A stretch of DNA of 5,797 bases from a virus. The position numbers and the translations under genes are program-made. Under the pieces are notes generated by a model, which worked only from the letters and a program-made list of their open reading frames with translations, had not been told where the DNA came from and did not search any database. This document shows, one piece after another, positions 1 to 5,797 of this stretch (within the stretch, counting starts at the first letter, position 1; each line of letters begins with the position of its first letter). The stretch lies in the IMG/VR virus record IMGVR_UViG_3300045988_013551, positions 1 through 5,797 of that record; one strand, 5' to 3'.

Positions 1-99
1 CCAGCAAGGTGCAAAACTACCTAAGCAAAAAATATCCCAACAAATACGGCATAGGTAGATACAACAACTTTACGCACATAGACGTGCGAAAAAAAAAAG
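1..99. repeat. Terminal direct repeat, left copy; identical to 5699-5797, marking closure of a circular 5698-nt genome
   Basis: Base-by-base comparison: ccagcaaggtgcaaaactacc...gacgtgcg(a)10g occurs at 1-99 and again at 5699-5797. The window ends exactly at the end of the second copy. Confidence 0.95.
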
Positions 100-116
100 C
101 CAGATGGAGGGGCTAA
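1..116 (+). CDS. C-terminal part of the M15-family peptidase ORF that starts at 5422 and wraps through the circular junction; ends ...FTHIDVRKKKARWRG, stop TAA 114-116
   Basis: Codons starting at position 3 are in frame with the ATG at 5422 (5701-5422 = 279 = 93 codons). The fragment contains the H-x-D (HID) motif at 75-83. Confidence 0.85.
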   Translation, partial: SKVQNYLSKKYPNKYGIGRYNNFTHIDVRKKKARWRG

Positions 117-119
117 AAA

Positions 120-374
120 ATGAAACTGAAATTCTACTCATTCCACGATGCACTGACGAACGGCTACTCTCAGCCGTTTCTGCAAAACAACCGAGCACAG
201 GCAGTGCGAACGGCAAGATGGAAAGCCAACGAAAGCAAAAAGAATGAGATTGAAGACATCAGCCTGGTTGAGCTGGGCGAGTTTGACACCGAAACCGGCG
301 AAATGACCGGAGCGGCGCCTGAACACATCGCACGGCTCATTGACCTCAAGGAGACTGCCAATGTTAAATCCTGA
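120..374 (+). CDS. Small conserved Microviridae non-structural protein, VP5-like (84 aa)
   Basis: ATG 120 is preceded by GGAGG (106-110) with a 9-nt spacer. The pattern F-Y-S-x-x-D...PF...N...A-x-R...L-x-E-LG-E-FD-x-E-TG resembles the small protein I recall next to VP3/VP1 in gokushovirus genomes. Its stop (TGA 372-374) overlaps the next gene by 14 nt. Confidence 0.7.
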   Translation: MKLKFYSFHDALTNGYSQPFLQNNRAQAVRTARWKANESKKNEIEDISLVELGEFDTETGEMTGAAPEHIARLIDLKETANVKS

Positions 375-789
375 CGTACTGGTGCGGTACTACGGCATAC
401 CAACCGAGAGGGTGACAAACGATCCTGGCAGCAAAACCGCACCGACGTGGAAAGCAGTCAAACGACCGAACGGCACCACAGACTACATCCAGCAGCCGGA
501 CGAGAACACATATGAGAAAATCCAGAGAGCCGGCGAGGGATACGACCTCGCAAGTGCAATCGCGCGACTGGAAGCGGGAGATACCAGCATCAAAGCCAAA
601 AGCATGGTATACACCGAGGGAACAGACCTTGAAAATCTGCCCAAGGACATCATGACGATGCACGAAAAAGCAGAAGCAGCAGCCAAAACGCTGGAACAGC
701 TGAAACAAGTACAGCAGACCGAACAGCCGAAGCCAAAAGAGGAAAAAGAGGAAGAGAAAGAGGTGAAGGAAAGCGAACAGAAACAGTGA
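361..789 (+). CDS. Putative internal scaffolding protein, VP3-like (142 aa from ATG 361)
   Basis: ATG 361 is preceded by AAGGAG (348-353) with a 7-nt spacer; the ORF-track start at 340 is a TTG with no RBS. It lies immediately upstream of VP1, as VP3 does in gokushoviruses. The segment GDTS...TDLENLPKD...AEAAAKTLEQL loosely resembles the scaffold pattern. The tail is K/E-rich and low-complexity. The functional call is positional plus weak motif evidence. Confidence 0.55.
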   Translation: MLNPDVLVRYYGIPTERVTNDPGSKTAPTWKAVKRPNGTTDYIQQPDENTYEKIQRAGEGYDLASAIARLEAGDTSIKAKSMVYTEGTDLENLPKDIMTMHEKAEAAAKTLEQLKQVQQTEQPKPKEEKEEEKEVKESEQKQ

Positions 790-814
790 AAACCATTTCG
801 CGCAAGTGCCGCGA

Positions 815-2491
815 ATGCAGCGACCACGAAGCAAATTTGACCGAAGTCACCAGCTGTTGACGACCATCAACGAAGGAGACCTCGTGCCTATCTACTGCGA
901 CGAAGTGCTGCCGGGTGATACCGCAAGGGTGCGCCTTAACGGGCTTATCCGCATGAGTACACCTATCTACCCAGTAATGGATAACGCATACATGGATACC
1001 TATTTCTTCTTTGTTCCCTGCCGGTTGCTCTGGGAACACTGGGAGAATATGTTCGGCGAAAACGATACCAATTACTGGGCAGAAAAGACCGAATACAGCA
1101 CGCCGACTTGCGAAATCGGCGGCAAGAGCGGACTGAGTAACGGCAGTCTGGGAGACTATTTCGGACTGCCGACCGAAGTCAAAAACAAAATCAAGGTAAA
1201 CGCGCTCCCGGCACGCGCCTACGCCATGATTTACAACGAGTGGTTTCGAGATGAAAATCTTGAAGCACCGCTAATGGTGGGTTACAAAAAAACTGACGAA
1301 GGAGGAACAAATGAAGACCCCACAGGAACGGGGTTTAACACTCAATACATCAACAAACCGATATACACAACGCAAACAAGCGAAGCAAACATTTACGCCA
1401 TGAAACCGGCAAAGGCTGGTAAGTTCCACGACTACTTCACAAGCTGTCTGCCGTCACCGTTGAAATCTGACCCTGTGGAAATCGGCCTGACGGGCAATGC
1501 ACCCATCAGGATTGGCAGTCCAACCGGAGAATATCAAGATTTTCCGGGCCCTGTGGAAATGGTGTTAGGCGCTAAAGGAATCGGAAACTTACCCGGTAGC
1601 GTAATATACGAGAATGCAACCGGTGCGCCGGGCGAAAAGAAAACGATGCAATTTACCGGCGTGGAAAAAACCACCGGCGAAAGCGGCGCAGGAGGCTGGA
1701 TGTACGCAGATGTAAGCGAAGTGAGCGCAATCAGCATTGCAGACTTGCGCATGAGCATCGCACTGCAGCACATCTTTGAAGCAGATGCGCGCAACGGCAC
1801 GCGCTACCGTGAATTCCTGTCTGGTACGTGGGGCGTAACGTCACCGGACAGCCGTCTACAAATTCCCGAATACATCGGCGGGCAGCGTATCGCAATCAAT
1901 GTCAATCAAGTCGTTCAGACAAGCCAGACAGACACGAAGACCGGACAGGCACTGGGCAATACGGCGGCATACAGTCTGACCACGTGCAGCAAACAGATGG
2001 TGGACTATGCAGCGACCGAATACGGCTTTATCATCGGTCTTGCAGTGGTACGAGTGGAGCACAGTTACCAGCAGGGACTGGCAACCAAGTGGACGCGCGG
2101 CGGTCGGTTCACATACTACGACCCGCGACTCGCAGCACTGGGCGAACAGCCGGTGTATAACAGAGAAATCTACGCACAGGGCACGGCAGAGGACAACGAA
2201 ATCTTTGGGTATCAGGAGGCATGGGCGGACTACCGTTACAAACCTTCTTACGTAACCGGAGAAATGCGCTCCAACTATCAAACGAGTCTGGACGCATGGC
2301 ATTATGCGGACAATTATAACGCACTTCCGCGTCTCTCGGCAGAGTGGATTCAGGAAGGACAGCAAAACATTGACCGGACGATCGCAGTAACGAGTAACAT
2401 CAGCCATCAGTTCTTGTGTGACTTCTACTTCAACGAAGAGTGGTACCGCGAGATGCCTATTTACAGCATCCCGGGCATCGAAAGAATTTAA
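815..2491 (+). CDS. VP1: Major capsid protein VP1 (phiX174 F-like), 558 aa from ATG 815
   Basis: The N-terminus MQRPRSKFDRSHQLLTTINEGDLVPIYCDEVLPGDT is the characteristic Microviridae capsid N-terminal signature (R-S-x-F-D-x-S-H...G-x-L-V-P...E-V-L-P-G-D). The size is typical of gokushovirus VP1. GTG 806 is an alternative in-frame start. Neither start has an obvious SD. Confidence 0.95.
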   Translation: MQRPRSKFDRSHQLLTTINEGDLVPIYCDEVLPGDTARVRLNGLIRMSTPIYPVMDNAYMDTYFFFVPCRLLWEHWENMFGENDTNYWAEKTEYSTPTCEIGGKSGLSNGSLGDYFGLPTEVKNKIKVNALPARAYAMIYNEWFRDENLEAPLMVGYKKTDEGGTNEDPTGTGFNTQYINKPIYTTQTSEANIYAMKPAKAGKFHDYFTSCLPSPLKSDPVEIGLTGNAPIRIGSPTGEYQDFPGPVEMVLGAKGIGNLPGSVIYENATGAPGEKKTMQFTGVEKTTGESGAGGWMYADVSEVSAISIADLRMSIALQHIFEADARNGTRYREFLSGTWGVTSPDSRLQIPEYIGGQRIAINVNQVVQTSQTDTKTGQALGNTAAYSLTTCSKQMVDYAATEYGFIIGLAVVRVEHSYQQGLATKWTRGGRFTYYDPRLAALGEQPVYNREIYAQGTAEDNEIFGYQEAWADYRYKPSYVTGEMRSNYQTSLDAWHYADNYNALPRLSAEWIQEGQQNIDRTIAVTSNISHQFLCDFYFNEEWYREMPIYSIPGIERI

Positions 2492-2529: not shown

Positions 2530-3387
2530 ATGGAAACGTTATTGAGCTTTATGCCGTACCTCATGCAAGGACTAAGCCTGTTAACAGGCATCATAACGAA
2601 CAGTAACCAAAGCAGCGCCAAAAACAGCCAAGGAGCGGGCAGCGAAAGCAGCACGAGCAGCGAGAGCACAACCGGCAGCTTAACAGCACCACAACAGATA
2701 GGTTCAACGCAAATCGGCACGCCAACAGGTATAACCACATTTGGTAACCAGAGCAGCGTAAACACAGCAAACGCGCTGCAAATGATGAGCGGACTACTGA
2801 GCAACCTCGCAAACGCTGGAAGCCAAGCAAGCGCGAAGAAGTACAACAGCGCGGAAGCAGCAGCAGAAAGAGCGTTCCAAAAAGAGATGCGCGGGACAGC
2901 CTATCAGGACACTGTAAAGGACATGATAGCAGCGGGCATCAATCCTATCCTAGCAGCGACCAACGGCGCAACAAGCGCACCGTCAGGAGCATCTGCAAGC
3001 ATTGGAAACCAGCATTATAACCAACAGAGCGCACAAGCGGCGAGTGTATCCGCAATGTACGAATATGGCAACAACACAGCAGAGCTGGCAGACAAATACT
3101 TACAGCTAGCAAAACAGGCAACCAGCGCAAAACAAATCAAAGCCGCAAAAAGCTGGGAGCAGTCAGCAAGCGAGCTGGCAAGCTCAAGCGCAAAACAGGC
3201 GCAACAGTACAGCTATGCAGCTAGCAAATTGGGTTCAGGCCTCGCAGGAGCTGGTAAAGCAGCCAAAGACGCAGCAAAAAAGGCAGGCGAAGCAGCCAAA
3301 GACACGGCAGGGAAATACAAAAAGTACAATCAAAGAGTACCGATTATGCCGAACATGGACACGTTCAACGCATACAGAGGAGACTAA
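2530..3387 (+). CDS. VP2: DNA pilot / minor capsid protein VP2 (285 aa)
   Basis: Hydrophobic N-terminus, S/T/Q/A-rich low-complexity regions, and the central motif ERAFQKEMRGTAYQDTVKDMIAAGINPILA (2866-2955). That motif matches the conserved gokushovirus VP2 signature (F-Q-x-x-M-x-x-T-A-Y-Q-x-x-V-x-D-M-x-A-A-G-(I/L)-N-P). Confidence 0.9.
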   Translation: METLLSFMPYLMQGLSLLTGIITNSNQSSAKNSQGAGSESSTSSESTTGSLTAPQQIGSTQIGTPTGITTFGNQSSVNTANALQMMSGLLSNLANAGSQASAKKYNSAEAAAERAFQKEMRGTAYQDTVKDMIAAGINPILAATNGATSAPSGASASIGNQHYNQQSAQAASVSAMYEYGNNTAELADKYLQLAKQATSAKQIKAAKSWEQSASELASSSAKQAQQYSYAASKLGSGLAGAGKAAKDAAKKAGEAAKDTAGKYKKYNQRVPIMPNMDTFNAYRGD

Positions 3388-3393
3388 GAAAGG

Positions 3394-3424
3394 AAGGGGG
3401 ATGGCAAAACATCCCCCTTTTTTA
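3394..3424 (+). terminator. Rho-independent terminator after VP2
   Basis: AAGGGGGATG (3394-3403), loop GCAAAA, CATCCCCCTT (3410-3419), with a T-run at 3418-3423. The stem is a perfect 10 bp. Confidence 0.8.
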
Positions 3425-3462
3425 ACAACAATAATCCAAAAAATAGAAAATGTGGAAAACTT

Positions 3463-3631
3463 GAGTTTTCAACACTTTCAACAGGTTTTCAACAACAAGT
3501 TGCACAAAGAAATTCGTCATAATGACGAACATTCAACAATTCAACAAGTTTTCAACAAAGTTTTCAACAAGTAAAAAGACAATAAATAAACATAGAAGCG
3601 TTAAAAAAACGAGTTTTCAACACTTTCAACA
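3463..3631 (+). repeat. Iteron-like array of same-orientation short repeats in the VP2-VP4 non-coding region
   Basis: TTCAACA starts at 3468, 3477, 3488, 3532, 3540, 3551, 3563, 3616 and 3625, nine copies all in one orientation. The 21-nt direct repeat GAGTTTTCAACACTTTCAACA lies at 3463-3483 and 3611-3631. The extended form CAACAAGT lies at 3493, 3542, 3565 and 3650. Confidence 0.85.
3513..3529. repeat. 17-bp palindrome TTCGTCAT-A-ATGACGAA between the two main repeat clusters
   Basis: Arms 3513-3520 and 3522-3529 are exact reverse complements around a single central base. Confidence 0.8.
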
Positions 3632-3650
3632 CTACTACTACTACTACTAC
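3631..3650. repeat. Trinucleotide microsatellite, (TAC)6 at 3633-3650 with a partial unit at 3631-3632
   Basis: actactactactactactac read directly; it sits in non-coding sequence between the last TTCAACA copy and the last CAACAAGT copy. Confidence 0.9.
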
Positions 3651-3683
3651 AACAAGTTAATATAAAAAGAAAGAGAGGTGTCA

Positions 3684-3718
3684 ACCGGCACAAGATAGAC
3701 AAGGAAGCTTGTGCCGGT
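3684..3718 (+). other. Perfect 11-bp stem-loop 12 nt upstream of the VP4 start codon
   Basis: ACCGGCACAAG (3684-3694) and CTTGTGCCGGT (3708-3718) are exact reverse complements. The loop is 13 nt (ATAGACAAGGAAG). No T-run follows, so it is not a typical terminator. Confidence 0.8.
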
Positions 3719-3730
3719 AACAAATGTTAT

Positions 3731-4720
3731 ATGCCATGTACAAAACCATTAGTATTTCAGATGGACACAAAGAAGCCAAAATTATGGGGAAGTCTGGAGA
3801 ACCTATCAAAGCAAGGACTACAAACAGACATCATGGACGGAGTAAAAAAAGGAAAATACGCATTATTACCATGCGGTAAGTGCGAATATTGCCGCAAACA
3901 GATAGCTGACCAATGGGCAACCAGAATAGAATTAGAAGCAAAAGAGTGGGACGATATAATTTTTCTGACGCTGACTTATGACGATGATCATATCCCATAC
4001 GGCGAGATACTCAAAGGTTACAGAAACATTCAGAGCCAAACAGTAAGCAAACGAGACGTGCAGCTATTCCTGAAACGGCTGAGAAAAGCGTACAAGAAGC
4101 CAATAAAATATTTCCTAGCGGCTGAATATGGTGACAGAACAAAAAGGCCACACTACCACGCAATAATATTTGGACTGAAACCACCAGATGCACAATGGTA
4201 TAAAAACCAAAAGGGCAACAGCTATTTCAAAAGCGAGTGGTTGGAAAAAATCTGGGGCAAAGGCATGATAGACTTTTCACCAGCACAGCCGGGAAGCTAT
4301 GCATACGTGGCACAGTACGTCAACAAAAAAGCCATAGGCACAGAACAGGCAACAAAATACTGGATGGAAGGGCGAGAGCCTGAATTCCGAATCATGTCAA
4401 AAGGCATCGGAGAAAAGTATCTGAAAGAACACAAAGATGAAATCTTAAAAACAGATAGCATCATATGCGCAGGAGGACGCGAGAAAAGGCCACCACGCTA
4501 TTTTGATAAGATACTCGACAAAGATACCAGCCAAGACACAGAAAGCTATTTTAAGGCGCATTCTGAAGAGCTGAGAGAGGTTAGAGCCAGACGCAGACGC
4601 AGTGCAATACAAAGTCTGGTCAATCTCGAACAATCTACAAGCGTGGATTACGAAACCTACCTCAACATTCAAAAAGAAAAAGACAAGCTAAAACAAAAGT
4701 GGCGAGAGCCAAAAACATAA
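3731..4720 (+). CDS. VP4: Rolling-circle replication initiator VP4 (phiX174 A-like HUH endonuclease, two-tyrosine type), 329 aa
   Basis: Motif I FLTLTY (3962-3979). Motif II HYH in PHYHAIIFG (4151-4159). Motif III YVAQYVNKK (4304-4330) has two Tyr spaced Y-x-x-x-Y and is nearly identical to the phiX174 gpA YVAKYVNK active site. The N-terminal M-P-C-x-x-P and CGKCEYCR (3872-3895) are typical of gokushovirus VP4. Confidence 0.95.
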   Translation: MPCTKPLVFQMDTKKPKLWGSLENLSKQGLQTDIMDGVKKGKYALLPCGKCEYCRKQIADQWATRIELEAKEWDDIIFLTLTYDDDHIPYGEILKGYRNIQSQTVSKRDVQLFLKRLRKAYKKPIKYFLAAEYGDRTKRPHYHAIIFGLKPPDAQWYKNQKGNSYFKSEWLEKIWGKGMIDFSPAQPGSYAYVAQYVNKKAIGTEQATKYWMEGREPEFRIMSKGIGEKYLKEHKDEILKTDSIICAGGREKRPPRYFDKILDKDTSQDTESYFKAHSEELREVRARRRRSAIQSLVNLEQSTSVDYETYLNIQKEKDKLKQKWREPKT

Positions 4721-4846: not shown

Positions 4847-4874
4847 TCGACAAATTTTAAAAGTGTAGTATAAT
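4847..4874 (+). promoter_or_regulatory. Sigma70/SigA-type promoter for the 44-codon ORF
   Basis: TCGACA (4847-4852), 16-nt spacer, TATAAT (4869-4874). A second overlapping TATAAT lies at 4874-4879. The ATG at 4902 is 28 nt downstream of the first -10. Confidence 0.6.
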
Positions 4875-4901: not shown

Positions 4902-5036
4902 ATGAGAAAGCCAAGACTTAGCAAAAGAACAATTCAAAAACTCTACGATGAAGGAAAAGCAACCAGCGGAAAATACGAGTATATCACAATACGTGAATGG
5001 GACAACGAAGTAAACGCATACGTTGATAACCTCTAA
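4902..5036 (+). CDS. Hypothetical small protein (44 aa, basic N-terminus): MRKPRLSKRTIQKLYDEGKATSGKYEYITIREWDNEVNAYVDNL
   Basis: ATG 4902 is preceded by GGGAAGG (4887-4893) with an 8-nt spacer. It has its own promoter upstream and a strong terminator downstream. It is too short for the ORF track and I recognise no family. Confidence 0.5.
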   Translation: MRKPRLSKRTIQKLYDEGKATSGKYEYITIREWDNEVNAYVDNL

Positions 5037-5106
5037 CGGTGGGACAAAGACGACAACTACGAACGCTGGACAATACCGGCAGAGGGTATTTGGGCATTTG
5101 AGAAAT

Positions 5107-5142
5107 AAAAAAATACCCGGTTGACAACCGGGTATTTTTTTT
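5107..5142 (+). terminator. Strong rho-independent terminator, symmetric with an A-tract upstream and a T-tract downstream
   Basis: ATACCCGG (5113-5120), loop TTGACAA (5121-5127), CCGGGTAT (5128-5135), with T8 at 5135-5142. The A-run at 5107-5112 can extend the stem. Confidence 0.85.
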
Positions 5143-5149
5143 ATATAAT
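5121..5149 (+). promoter_or_regulatory. Consensus promoter TTGACA-17-TATAAT embedded in the terminator hairpin
   Basis: TTGACA at 5121-5126 is the terminator loop. The 17-nt spacer at 5127-5143 is the 3' stem arm plus the T-tract. TATAAT lies at 5144-5149, followed by AAGGAGGTG (5156-5164) and ATG 5171. Confidence 0.7.
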
Positions 5150-5170
5150 ACAAAAAAGGAGGTGGAGCGA

Positions 5171-5287
5171 ATGGCACACAGAAGCGGCGCAGGCCGGGGC
5201 GACCAGCGGCGTTTTACCCAGACTGCAAAACGGGTAAAGAACATCAACGTAAGACCAAAGGTCAGCCGTGGCGGCATCCGATTATAA
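5171..5287 (+). CDS. Small arginine-rich DNA-binding/packaging protein (phiX174 J analogue; gokushovirus ORF8-like), 38 aa
   Basis: Translation: MAHRSGAGRGDQRRFTQTAKRVKNINVRPKVSRGGIRL. It is strongly basic, and its C-terminal R-G-G-I-R-L matches the RGG(I/R)R(F/L) ending I recall for ORF8 of the Chlamydia and Spiroplasma microviruses. AAGGAGGTG lies 8 nt upstream of the ATG. Confidence 0.8.
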   Translation: MAHRSGAGRGDQRRFTQTAKRVKNINVRPKVSRGGIRL

Positions 5288-5317: not shown

Positions 5318-5419
5318 GTGAATTTTAAAGAAACCATGGACATTCTGCTGAAAATCCTTGCAATGGTGGATAAAATCTACCACGCAGTTGTCAAGGACGA
5401 AGACGAAAAAGAGGAGTAA
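5318..5419 (+). CDS. Hypothetical 33-codon ORF: (M/V)NFKETMDILLKILAMVDKIYHAVVKDEDEKEE
   Basis: GTG 5318 lies 7 nt after AAGGAGG (5304-5310); an in-frame ATG at 5336 is an alternative start. Its stop TAA (5417-5419) lies 2 nt before the peptidase ATG, and its last codons (GAGGAG) provide that gene's SD. I recognise no family. Confidence 0.4.
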   Translation: MNFKETMDILLKILAMVDKIYHAVVKDEDEKEE

Positions 5420-5421
5420 AG

Positions 5422-5797
5422 ATGCTGCATGAATACAGCTTATTTAATCAGGGCACCCAACAAGTAAGCGAACACTTCAAGATTCAAGAATTTGCACAAA
5501 AAGACTACCGGTGTGATAAAATTCTTATTGAATCAGAACTAATAAAAGTGCTAGAAGATATAAGAACACACTTCAATAAACCGGTAATCATCACCAGCGG
5601 CTACAGAACACCAGAATACAACAAGAAGGTCGGCGGTGTAAAAAATTCACAACACACAAAGGGCACGGCAGCAGACATCAAAGTGAAAAATGTGCTAGCC
5701 AGCAAGGTGCAAAACTACCTAAGCAAAAAATATCCCAACAAATACGGCATAGGTAGATACAACAACTTTACGCACATAGACGTGCGAAAAAAAAAAG
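5422..5797 (+). CDS. Zinc D-Ala-D-Ala carboxypeptidase-like cell-wall peptidase, Peptidase_M15 (M15A / M15_3-like). It is 130 aa in total, runs off the window end and continues at 1-116
   Basis: My translation: MLHEYSLFNQGTQQVSEHFKIQEFAQKDYRCDKILIESELIKVLEDIRTHFNKPVIITSGYRTPEYNKKVGGVKNSQHTKGTAADIKVKNVLASKVQNYLSKKYPNKYGIGRYNNFTHIDVRKKKARWRG. It carries the signature SGYR-x4-N-x2-VGG-x3-S-x-H-x2-G-x-A-x-D (5596-5676; H 5653-5655, D 5674-5676) and the distal F-x-H-x-D (H 5773-5775, D 5779-5781). GAGGAG lies 5 nt upstream of ATG 5422. Confidence 0.85.
   Translation, partial: MLHEYSLFNQGTQQVSEHFKIQEFAQKDYRCDKILIESELIKVLEDIRTHFNKPVIITSGYRTPEYNKKVGGVKNSQHTKGTAADIKVKNVLASKVQNYLSKKYPNKYGIGRYNNFTHIDVRKKK
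5699..5797. repeat. Terminal direct repeat, right copy; identical to 1-99
   Basis: See the left copy; both copies include the same A10 run. Confidence 0.95.

Follow-up and report, generated by a model that had tools for sequence, protein, structure and literature searches.

A gut gokushovirus genome encodes an M15-family peptidoglycan peptidase that probably serves as a holin-less endolysin

INTRODUCTION

The lysis protein E of the microvirus phiX174 is a membrane protein that is overprinted in another gene and inhibits MraY; it does not act enzymatically. We know of no lysis mechanism for any gokushovirus. The initial annotation of the DNA analyzed here held that cultured Microviridae lyse their hosts solely with single-gene lysis proteins of the phiX174 E kind, which is too narrow a view, as cultured roseophage microviruses encode M15 peptidases (PMC11499846). 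Roux et al. (2012) found M15_3 peptidases in 11 human-associated Microviridae. Five of these viruses were gokushoviruses, and one was affiliated with a Providencia alcalifaciens prophage; the authors concluded that the genes had been acquired horizontally, suggested that they encode endolysins, and pointed to the contrast with phiX174 E (PMC3394797). Kirchberger et al. (2022) described peptidases as typical lysis-associated accessory genes of microviruses, and distant microviruses were already reported to exchange peptidase cassettes (PMC9239249). Gp7 of the cultured microvirus Ebor degrades peptidoglycan in zymogram and plate assays; it occurs in virions only in traces, and its authors treat it as a lytic enzyme (PMC11980548).

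Like the gene described here, Ebor Gp7 and the roseophage M15 genes are muralytic accessory genes in Microviridae. They belong to other lineages with alphaproteobacterial hosts. The initial annotation had supposed that no enzyme of this kind was functionally characterized. Ebor Gp7 shows otherwise for wall hydrolases of microviruses at large; for gokushovirus M15 peptidases, the literature searched yielded no functional study.

The window analyzed here, a 5,797-nt stretch of viral DNA, by itself adds very little to this picture: published work and GenBank records already cover the gene, the family to which it belongs, and the role proposed for it, down to an identical deposited protein. What deserves attention is that strong selection maintains a tailed-phage endolysin in many gut gokushoviruses, with neither a holin nor an export signal, while sister genomes manage without it. 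Solving the route of the enzyme to the wall would close a long-standing gap, as would establishing whether these viruses infect Oscillospiraceae. The enzymes, about 130 amino acids (aa) long, are also of practical interest as candidate lysins, being numerous, diverse, and compact.

RESULTS AND DISCUSSION

Genome and gene layout

The window consists of a 5,698-nt circle plus an exact 99-nt terminal direct repeat (Table 1). By gene content, the virus is a gokushovirus-type member of the Microviridae, a circular ssDNA phage of the gut: VP1, VP2, VP3, VP4, and VP5 are all present on a single strand, in a circle within the ~4.5- to 6-kb range. Nucleotide identity to human-gut Gokushovirinae of GenBank is 76 to 86%. 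A perfect sigma-70 consensus promoter stands upstream of a block comprising the VP8-like gene, a small ORF, the M15 gene, and VP5; its TTGACA element is situated in the loop of a hairpin, with a T8 run 3' of the hairpin. The 38-aa basic protein encoded first in this block is conserved in 8 of 8 compared relatives (L001 to L008) and had no match in a Pfam search. Its position and composition suggest a small DNA-binding or charge-neutralizing protein of the VP8/J-like type.

Table 1. Coordinates of the features of the window
Feature	Position	Strand	Remarks
Terminal overlap copy	1..99	.	Exact duplicate of 5699-5797; circular-assembly overlap, no extra genome
M15 ORF, 3' end past the circular junction	100..116	+	…A-R-W-R-G; stop TAA at 114-116
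VP5 (Phage_ORF5)	120..374	+	Pfam E=1.2e-14; directly 3' of M15
VP3 scaffold	340-789		Weak Chlamy_scaf match, 21.9 bits, below the Pfam cut-off of 25
VP1 major capsid protein	806..2491	+	Pfam Phage_F, E=2.4e-149; marks the genome as Microviridae
VP2 DNA pilot protein	2530..3387	+	phrog_18604, E=2.8e-123; pilot-protein PHROGs
VP4 replication initiator (Rep)	3731..4720	+	Pfam and PHROG matches
44-aa ORF	4902-5036		Between VP4 and the peptidase
Sigma-70 consensus, TTGACA-17-TATAAT	5121..5149	+	12/12 matches
VP8/J-like protein (putative), 38 aa	5171..5287	+	Highly basic (MAHRSGAGRGDQRRF…SRGGIRL); conserved
Small ORF, 33 aa	5318..5419	+	Stop 2 nt before the M15 ATG; conserved
GAGGAG Shine-Dalgarno of M15	5411..5416	+	5 nt 5' of the ATG, within the end of the small ORF; read from the sequence
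M15 peptidase ORF, 130 aa	5422..5797	+	ATG at 5422; codons 1-125 and first base of codon 126
Key codon R62	5605-5607	+	
Key codon H78	5653-5655	+	
Key codon D85	5674-5676	+	
Key codon H118	5773-5775	+	
Key codon D120	5779-5781	+	
A10 homopolymer	5787..5796	+	Encodes K123-K125; 3' of the catalytic H118/D120 codons

The peptidase ORF crosses the ends of the window. Its length of 130 aa had been recognized in the initial annotation, which joined position 5797 directly to position 1. The length is right and the junction is not: a direct join would yield a protein of 163 aa in which 33 aa are duplicated in frame, so the true wrap runs from 5797 to 100. The overlap at 1 to 99 merely repeats M15 codons 93 to 125, flanked by two bases from the end of codon 92 and one from the start of codon 126. 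The gene had also been described as invisible to linear ORF calling, and indeed the linear ORF list holds only a 35-aa piece of it, at 9 to 116. Within the predicted polycistronic layout, the M15 gene is tightly integrated. Its Shine-Dalgarno sequence is embedded in the gene before it, and the GGAGG at 106 to 110, within its own codons for W-R-G, reads as the Shine-Dalgarno sequence of VP5 (ATG at 120).

The A10 run had been regarded as a place where a frameshift could break the distal HxD motif. Because the codons for H118 and D120 lie upstream of the run, an error in homopolymer length would leave the catalytic residues in place, and a frameshift would alter only the last ~7 residues. Moreover, the KKKARW frame through the run is confirmed by R127 and W128, neither of which varies among 29 homologues, those of tailed phages included. 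An ORF that spans the contig ends and contains such a homopolymer might be suspected of being an artefact, that is, a chimeric assembly, tailed-phage contamination, or a pseudogene that arose through the overlap or the A10 run. We regard this as extremely improbable and, for practical purposes, refuted. Closing the circle through the exact 99-nt overlap preserves the reading frame, the KARW residues are conserved past the A run, and dN/dS is well below 1. In addition, an identical protein is found in an independent GenBank record (DAX73674.1, "MAG TPA: peptidase [Microviridae sp.]"), and the gene order recurs in 16 IMG/VR and 2 GenBank genomes, gaps in the regex gene calls allowed for.

Family, active site, and predicted fold

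Sequence comparison places the protein in Peptidase_M15_3 (MEROPS M15A), a family of peptidoglycan peptidases. The Pfam profile (PF08291) matched with an E value of 4e-29 and 101.4 bits, against a cut-off of 23.2, over profile positions 2 to 108 of 108; Peptidase_M15_2 was a weaker second match. PHROG 894, annotated "endolysin," matched with an E value of 8.8e-47. The initial annotation had named an M15-family peptidase in a microvirus from motifs alone and had anticipated a Peptidase_M15_3 match in Pfam and a LAS fold in a predicted structure. The family call is borne out by both profile matches and by the invariant catalytic residues.

The protein has a mass of 15.2 kDa, a pI of 9.9, and a single domain. 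The motifs listed at the outset, and the codons for H78, D85, and H118, were all placed correctly: SGYR (residues 59 to 62), N67, VGG (70 to 72), SQHTKGTAAD (76 to 85, matching SxHxxGxAxD), and FTHID (116 to 120). The two residues that would serve as zinc ligands in the SxHxxGxAxD motif are present (S76-Q-H78-T-K-G81-T-A83-A-D85), the distal FxHxD motif, F116-T-H118-I-D120, would supply the third ligand, and R62 corresponds to the conserved substrate-binding arginine. R62, H78, D85, H118, and D120 are, like R127 and W128, invariant in the 29-sequence alignment.

A sequence search of the PDB returned 1LBU as its sole match (E=1.4e-3 with the single sequence, 2.8e-7 with a profile), which indicates that no close solved structure exists. 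R62, H78, and D85 of the peptidase align to R138, H154, and D161 of 1LBU. An AlphaFold2 model built from the 29-sequence alignment (pLDDT 92.7, pTM 0.86) had as its top Foldseek matches in the PDB 1LBU (probability 1.00), VanY, hedgehog N-domains, and the L-Ala-D-Glu endopeptidase ChiX. Matches among predicted viral structures were named "peptidase" and came from tailed phages and other microviruses. The model thus confidently predicts the expected LAS, or Hedgehog/DD-peptidase, fold of zinc DD-peptidases. Fold and metal-site motif are the same as in 1LBU, the zinc D-Ala-D-Ala carboxypeptidase of Streptomyces albus G and structural prototype of M15A. However, sequence identity to 1LBU is ~20%, 1LBU has an extra N-terminal peptidoglycan-binding domain, and the bond specificity of the two enzymes need not match.

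Tailed-phage relatives and origin

Beyond the microvirus cluster, identity to the peptidase falls to ~60%. The next relatives are found in Proteus phage Myduc (61%), in SP6-like Salmonella and Klebsiella podophages (~52%), and in Yersinia phage phiR1-37, and homologues that are 47 to 61% identical are annotated as endolysins in Proteus, Salmonella SP6-like, and Klebsiella phages. Prophage-gene relatives occur in Providencia alcalifaciens (59%) and in many Oscillospiraceae/Clostridia genomes (up to 58%). The tailed-phage M15_3 endolysins considered here (Myduc gp19, SP6 gp46, LysPM1, and the peptidase M15A of Burkholderia phage ST79 [PMC5025407]) are 116 to 130 aa long and share SxHxxGxAxD, FxHxD, and the C-terminal KARW with the window protein, to which Myduc gp19 and SP6 gp46 are 52 to 61% identical.

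In the tailed-phage neighborhoods examined, these genes sit in cassettes with holins and/or spanins, whereas the microvirus gene has neither beside it. The gene for SP6 gp46 is followed by those for the i- and o-spanins. One homologue (P0109) lies directly 3' of a Phage_holin_6_1 gene, another (P0117) directly 3' of a Phage_r1t_holin gene, and a third (P0114) directly 3' of Phage_holin_3_3 in a P2-like module. Proteus phage Homer encodes the Peptidase_M15_3 endolysin LysPM1, which lyses permeabilized cells; EDTA abolishes its activity, which Zn2+ or Ca2+ partly restores, and the same set of catalytic residues has been described for it (PMC13461873). The lysis-cassette setting of the relatives together with LysPM1 indicates that the ancestral role was that of a holin-dependent endolysin. 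By homology to LysPM1 and 1LBU, the window protein is expected to be zinc dependent, and the LysPM1 data suggest that it would hydrolyze peptide bonds of peptidoglycan.

The best explanation for these relationships is that a gut gokushovirus lineage captured the gene horizontally from tailed-phage lysis cassettes. Our preferred reading, which we consider probable, is that the protein is an accessory, horizontally acquired zinc peptidoglycan peptidase used as a holin-less endolysin. Earlier literature reaches the same reading (PMC3394797, PMC9239249, PMC11499846).

Distribution, selection, and alleles

The gene had been thought probably rare, and its distribution contradicts this. More than 100 clusters at the 90% identity level are 72 to 89% identical to the peptidase, most of them on contigs of 5.3 to 5.9 kb. 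The best 80 IMG/VR matches include 16 relatives of complete size. Among GenBank phage records, 837 match the peptidase, and >100 of these are microviruses, several with the annotation "peptidase M15." Comparison with 21 microvirus homologues gave pairwise Nei-Gojobori dN/dS values of 0.07 to 0.19, which show purifying selection on the gene in microviruses.

The gene order VP4, VP8-like gene, small ORF, M15, VP5 recurs in two GenBank genomes (L001 and L002) and in the 16 IMG/VR relatives (L012 to L027), as surveyed with regex gene calls that have gaps in some genomes. KX513864, annotated "peptidase M15," and KT264784 carry a peptidase of the same family in the same virus group and in the same slot between the small ORF and VP5, with 75 to 76% aa identity. 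The window is therefore one further genome of a lineage already described and annotated, with no substantive difference. The closest backbones are those of KX513876 and MT121961, which are 81 to 88% identical in nucleotides and align throughout except at 4905 to 5170 and 5313 to 115. These sister gokushoviruses and MG945447 carry a second, "type B" allele, a Peptidase_M15-type gene with the same motifs as the "type A" allele of the window. Only ~42% of aa are identical between the two types. Their insertion sites also differ: type B is inserted upstream of the VP8-like gene, while type A (window, KX513864, KT264784) is inserted downstream of the small ORF. Both alleles together were found in 0 of ~56 genomes examined. 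No remnant of a type B peptidase was found at 4905 to 5170, the sole cross-match being to the homologous catalytic core of type A.

The 33-codon ORF just upstream had been put forward as a possible partner of the peptidase. We rejected it as the holin-like member of a cassette: it lacks a TM segment, in type B genomes the VP8-like gene lies between it and the peptidase, and it is present in relatives without M15 (most clearly L008, L189, and L192). Comparative sequence data identify it as a clade backbone gene and not as part of the peptidase cassette. The small ORF without M15 was found in 19 of 47 related genomes, although some of these loci matched only residues 12 to 30 of the small ORF and may not be true homologues. 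Its 33-aa product, preceded by a strong Shine-Dalgarno sequence, is a predicted amphipathic helix (pI 4.7, µH 0.53) that carries the motif ILxxLDKIYHA and ends in an acidic tail, and a helper role for it is possible.

M15 behaves as an accessory, exchangeable cassette in this clade. Such behavior could also be expected if the enzyme were not used for lysis, or were used only conditionally, for instance in wall remodeling, in release in certain growth states or hosts, or in action on neighboring cells, with a backbone factor performing lysis. The dispensability of M15 in the clade, seen in its absence from the 19 related genomes, the existence of two alleles at two sites, and the lack of a visible export route are all consistent with this. 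However, strong purifying selection and long retention in a 5.7-kb genome argue for a substantial contribution to fitness, and all homologues found that are characterized or have an informative context are lysis enzymes. We consider a nonlytic or conditional function unlikely and continue to favor use of the peptidase as a holin-less endolysin.

Route to the wall and proposed role

On the plus strand, no ORF of at least 20 aa, the peptidase included, has a TM-like segment, and no frame holds a usable hydrophobic window. No holin, pinholin, SAR domain, spanin, or signal peptide was detectable on the coding strand, in agreement with the initial annotation, which had seen neither a signal peptide nor a TM segment in the peptidase and no holin-like TM ORF in the genome. 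The submitted ORFs had no Pfam or PHROG lysis matches other than M15, and no lipoprotein-like ORF was found. The N-terminus of the peptidase, MLHEYSLFNQGTQQVSEHF, is polar and in the model lies within the folded domain (strand 2 to 6, pLDDT ~95), so the peptidase is neither a secreted nor a SAR endolysin. An endolysin would normally reach the wall with the help of such elements, and this canonical route is thus missing here.

Two further sources of a membrane-active lysis protein were considered and set aside. The sole strong hydrophobic stretch, at 988 in an alternative frame of VP1 and conserved among relatives, was rejected as an E-like overprinted lysis gene, as it comes right after a stop with no start codon before it. 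The stretch lacks an upstream start codon in 6 of 6 genomes and is a by-product of the conserved YFFFVP codons. Hydrophobic ORFs on the minus strand were attributed to the purine-rich composition of the coding strand and discounted, because microviruses code on one strand. The genome resembles phiX174 in having a microvirus lysis solution without a holin, if the peptidase is indeed a lysis enzyme, and differs from it in that phiX174 E is an overprinted TM protein, whereas the window peptidase is a stand-alone enzyme in a genome without such a TM ORF.

Relatives that lack M15 carry no other recognizable muralytic gene. The backbone must therefore have an exit mechanism of its own, and lysis does not strictly depend on the peptidase. 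In the scheme that we favor, the peptidase, preceded by the consensus promoter, the VP8-like gene, and the small ORF and equipped with its own GAGGAG ribosome-binding site, would presumably be made together with the structural proteins. It would then cut peptide stems or cross-links of the host sacculus and may thereby hasten lysis, or bring it to completion, when infection ends. Its part would be that of an accessory booster beside the exit mechanism of the backbone.

A speculative and rather unlikely extension is that the enzyme is deployed in a holin-independent manner, either through a membrane lesion made by a non-TM factor (the 33-aa protein or surplus VP2) or carried in the virion against a Clostridial wall. 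If true, either route would give the smallest DNA phages a new way of deploying an endolysin independently of a holin.

Virion carriage has also to be weighed as a function in its own right. As a virion-associated entry enzyme, a few copies of the peptidase on the T=1 particle would open the wall locally for the VP2 pilot protein and the ssDNA, which would matter most with a thick-walled Clostridial host. The gene shares a predicted transcription unit with structural genes, no holin is present, and traces of Ebor Gp7 occur in virions (PMC11980548). An M15-bearing prophage in Oscillibacter and the many best cellular matches in Oscillospiraceae/Clostridia would suit such a host. On the other hand, the nearest nonmicrovirus relatives are free endolysins encoded beside holins and not virion proteins, close relatives without M15 evidently still infect, and the peptidase has no extra domain to tether it to the capsid or to VP2. 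Ebor Gp7 itself is called lytic by its authors, and only traces of it are found in virions. We consider an entry function quite unlikely and retain the interpretation of the peptidase as a holin-less endolysin acting at the end of infection.

Host candidates

Sequence similarity points to Oscillospiraceae/Clostridia or Morganellaceae as candidate hosts. The best cellular and tailed-phage matches of the peptidase are split between the two: the Morganellaceae matches (the Proteus phages and Providencia mentioned above) cover residues 14 to 128, and those in Oscillospiraceae/Clostridia are often full length. With 130 aa at 50 to 60% identity, a tree would not decide between the two. The Oscillibacter prophage mentioned above is of the gokushovirus type and resides in the genome of an isolate, Oscillibacter sp. 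PC13.

Mosaic M15 cassette in a circular genome

The first and last 99 nt of the window (1-99 and 5699-5797) form an identical direct repeat, which is a signature of circular assembly, 99 being a common assembler k-mer length. Naive concatenation of these ends produces an in-frame 33-aa duplication within the peptidase because 99 is divisible by 3. A related record, MT121961, has a terminal overlap of the same type (55 nt).

The backbone of the window is 81 to 88% identical in nucleotide sequence to those of the sister gokushoviruses KX513876 and MT121961, with the exception of two intervals, 4905-5170 and 5313-115, that on sequence comparison are mosaic breakpoints. The M15 allele of these two relatives (type B), which shares ∼42% amino acid identity with that of the window (type A), sits at the first interval, and the window's own allele occupies the second. 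Co-occurrence of both alleles was not found in any of ∼56 genomes.

Small ORFs and noncoding elements around the cassette

Features of the window and of related genomes
Feature	Location	Notes
44-aa ORF (MRKPRLSKRTIQKLYDEGK…)	window 4902-5036	promoter consensus in front (11/12, 4847-4874)
Hairpin ATACCCGG-TTGACAA-CCGGGTAT, then T8	window 5105-5149	
38-aa very basic protein (MAHRSGAGRGDQRRFTQTAKRVKNINVRPKVSRGGIRL)	window 5171-5287	C-terminal GGIRL
33-aa ORF	window 5318-5419	GTG start, strong AAGGAGG SD; conserved
VP2-VP4 intergenic region	window 3392-3720	
Putative small ORF with hydrophobic core	L188 5247-5408; L197 2182-2370; L200 4708-4869; L201 2789-2989	M15-less genomes
Gokushovirus-type prophage (L165)	NZ_FOXE01000003.1, 139639-146013	Oscillibacter sp. 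PC13, 177-kb contig

The 38-aa basic protein is probably a DNA-binding protein of the VP8/J type. It is kept in all eight relatives compared (L001 to L008) and lacks annotation in the GenBank records inspected. The 44-aa ORF has no family match; a homolog sharing its MRKPRLS N terminus lies directly 5′ of the type B peptidase in one relative, L005, and homologs with this N terminus are also found in the M15-less genomes L196 and L197. The 33-aa ORF upstream of the peptidase encodes an amphipathic helix with the motif ILxxLDKIYHA, followed by an acidic tail, and matched neither Pfam nor PHROG families. Its matches are restricted to microvirus-sized contigs in IMG/VR (46 of 46) and to microviruses among GenBank phages (18 of 18), and the matched microvirus-sized contigs include some with and some without an M15 gene.

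A perfect TTGACA-17-TATAAT consensus (12/12) overlaps the hairpin, and the element resembles a terminator-promoter combination immediately 5′ of the block comprising the VP8-like gene, small ORF, M15 gene, and VP5. Between VP2 and VP4, a G+C hairpin and its T-run lie immediately 3′ of VP2, followed by numerous repeat copies of the type TTTTCAACA(A/C) (3464-3633) and by an (ACT)6.7 run (3631-3650). Immediately 5′ of VP4 is an inverted repeat of 10 bp, CCGGCACAAG/CTTGTGCCGG (3686-3718). These elements are possibly origin or regulatory iterons.

An M15-bearing prophage in Oscillibacter

L165 is an integrated prophage with the gene order VP4 (1881-2888), M15 peptidase (2995-3378), VP5, VP3, and VP1 (4117-5844), adjoined by a gene for a tyrosine recombinase of the XerC/D type (646-1659, minus strand). 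Its peptidase is 48% identical to that of the window. The record suggests an isolate genome, and the prophage is an indication that Oscillospiraceae host M15-bearing microviruses. Among the papers searched, none connected microvirus prophages with Oscillibacter. Within VP1 of L165, three consecutive plus-strand ORFs in an alternative frame (5186-5830; 65, 76, and 69 aa) are strongly hydrophobic and TM-like, which could be a composition effect or reflect overprinted membrane proteins; the window has no counterpart to them.

Some M15-less gokushovirus genomes have a putative small ORF with a hydrophobic core (…FLLYYYLLVVVVVVG…) just 3′ of VP4. In L188, L197, L200, and L201, this ORF is located in a repeat-rich region.
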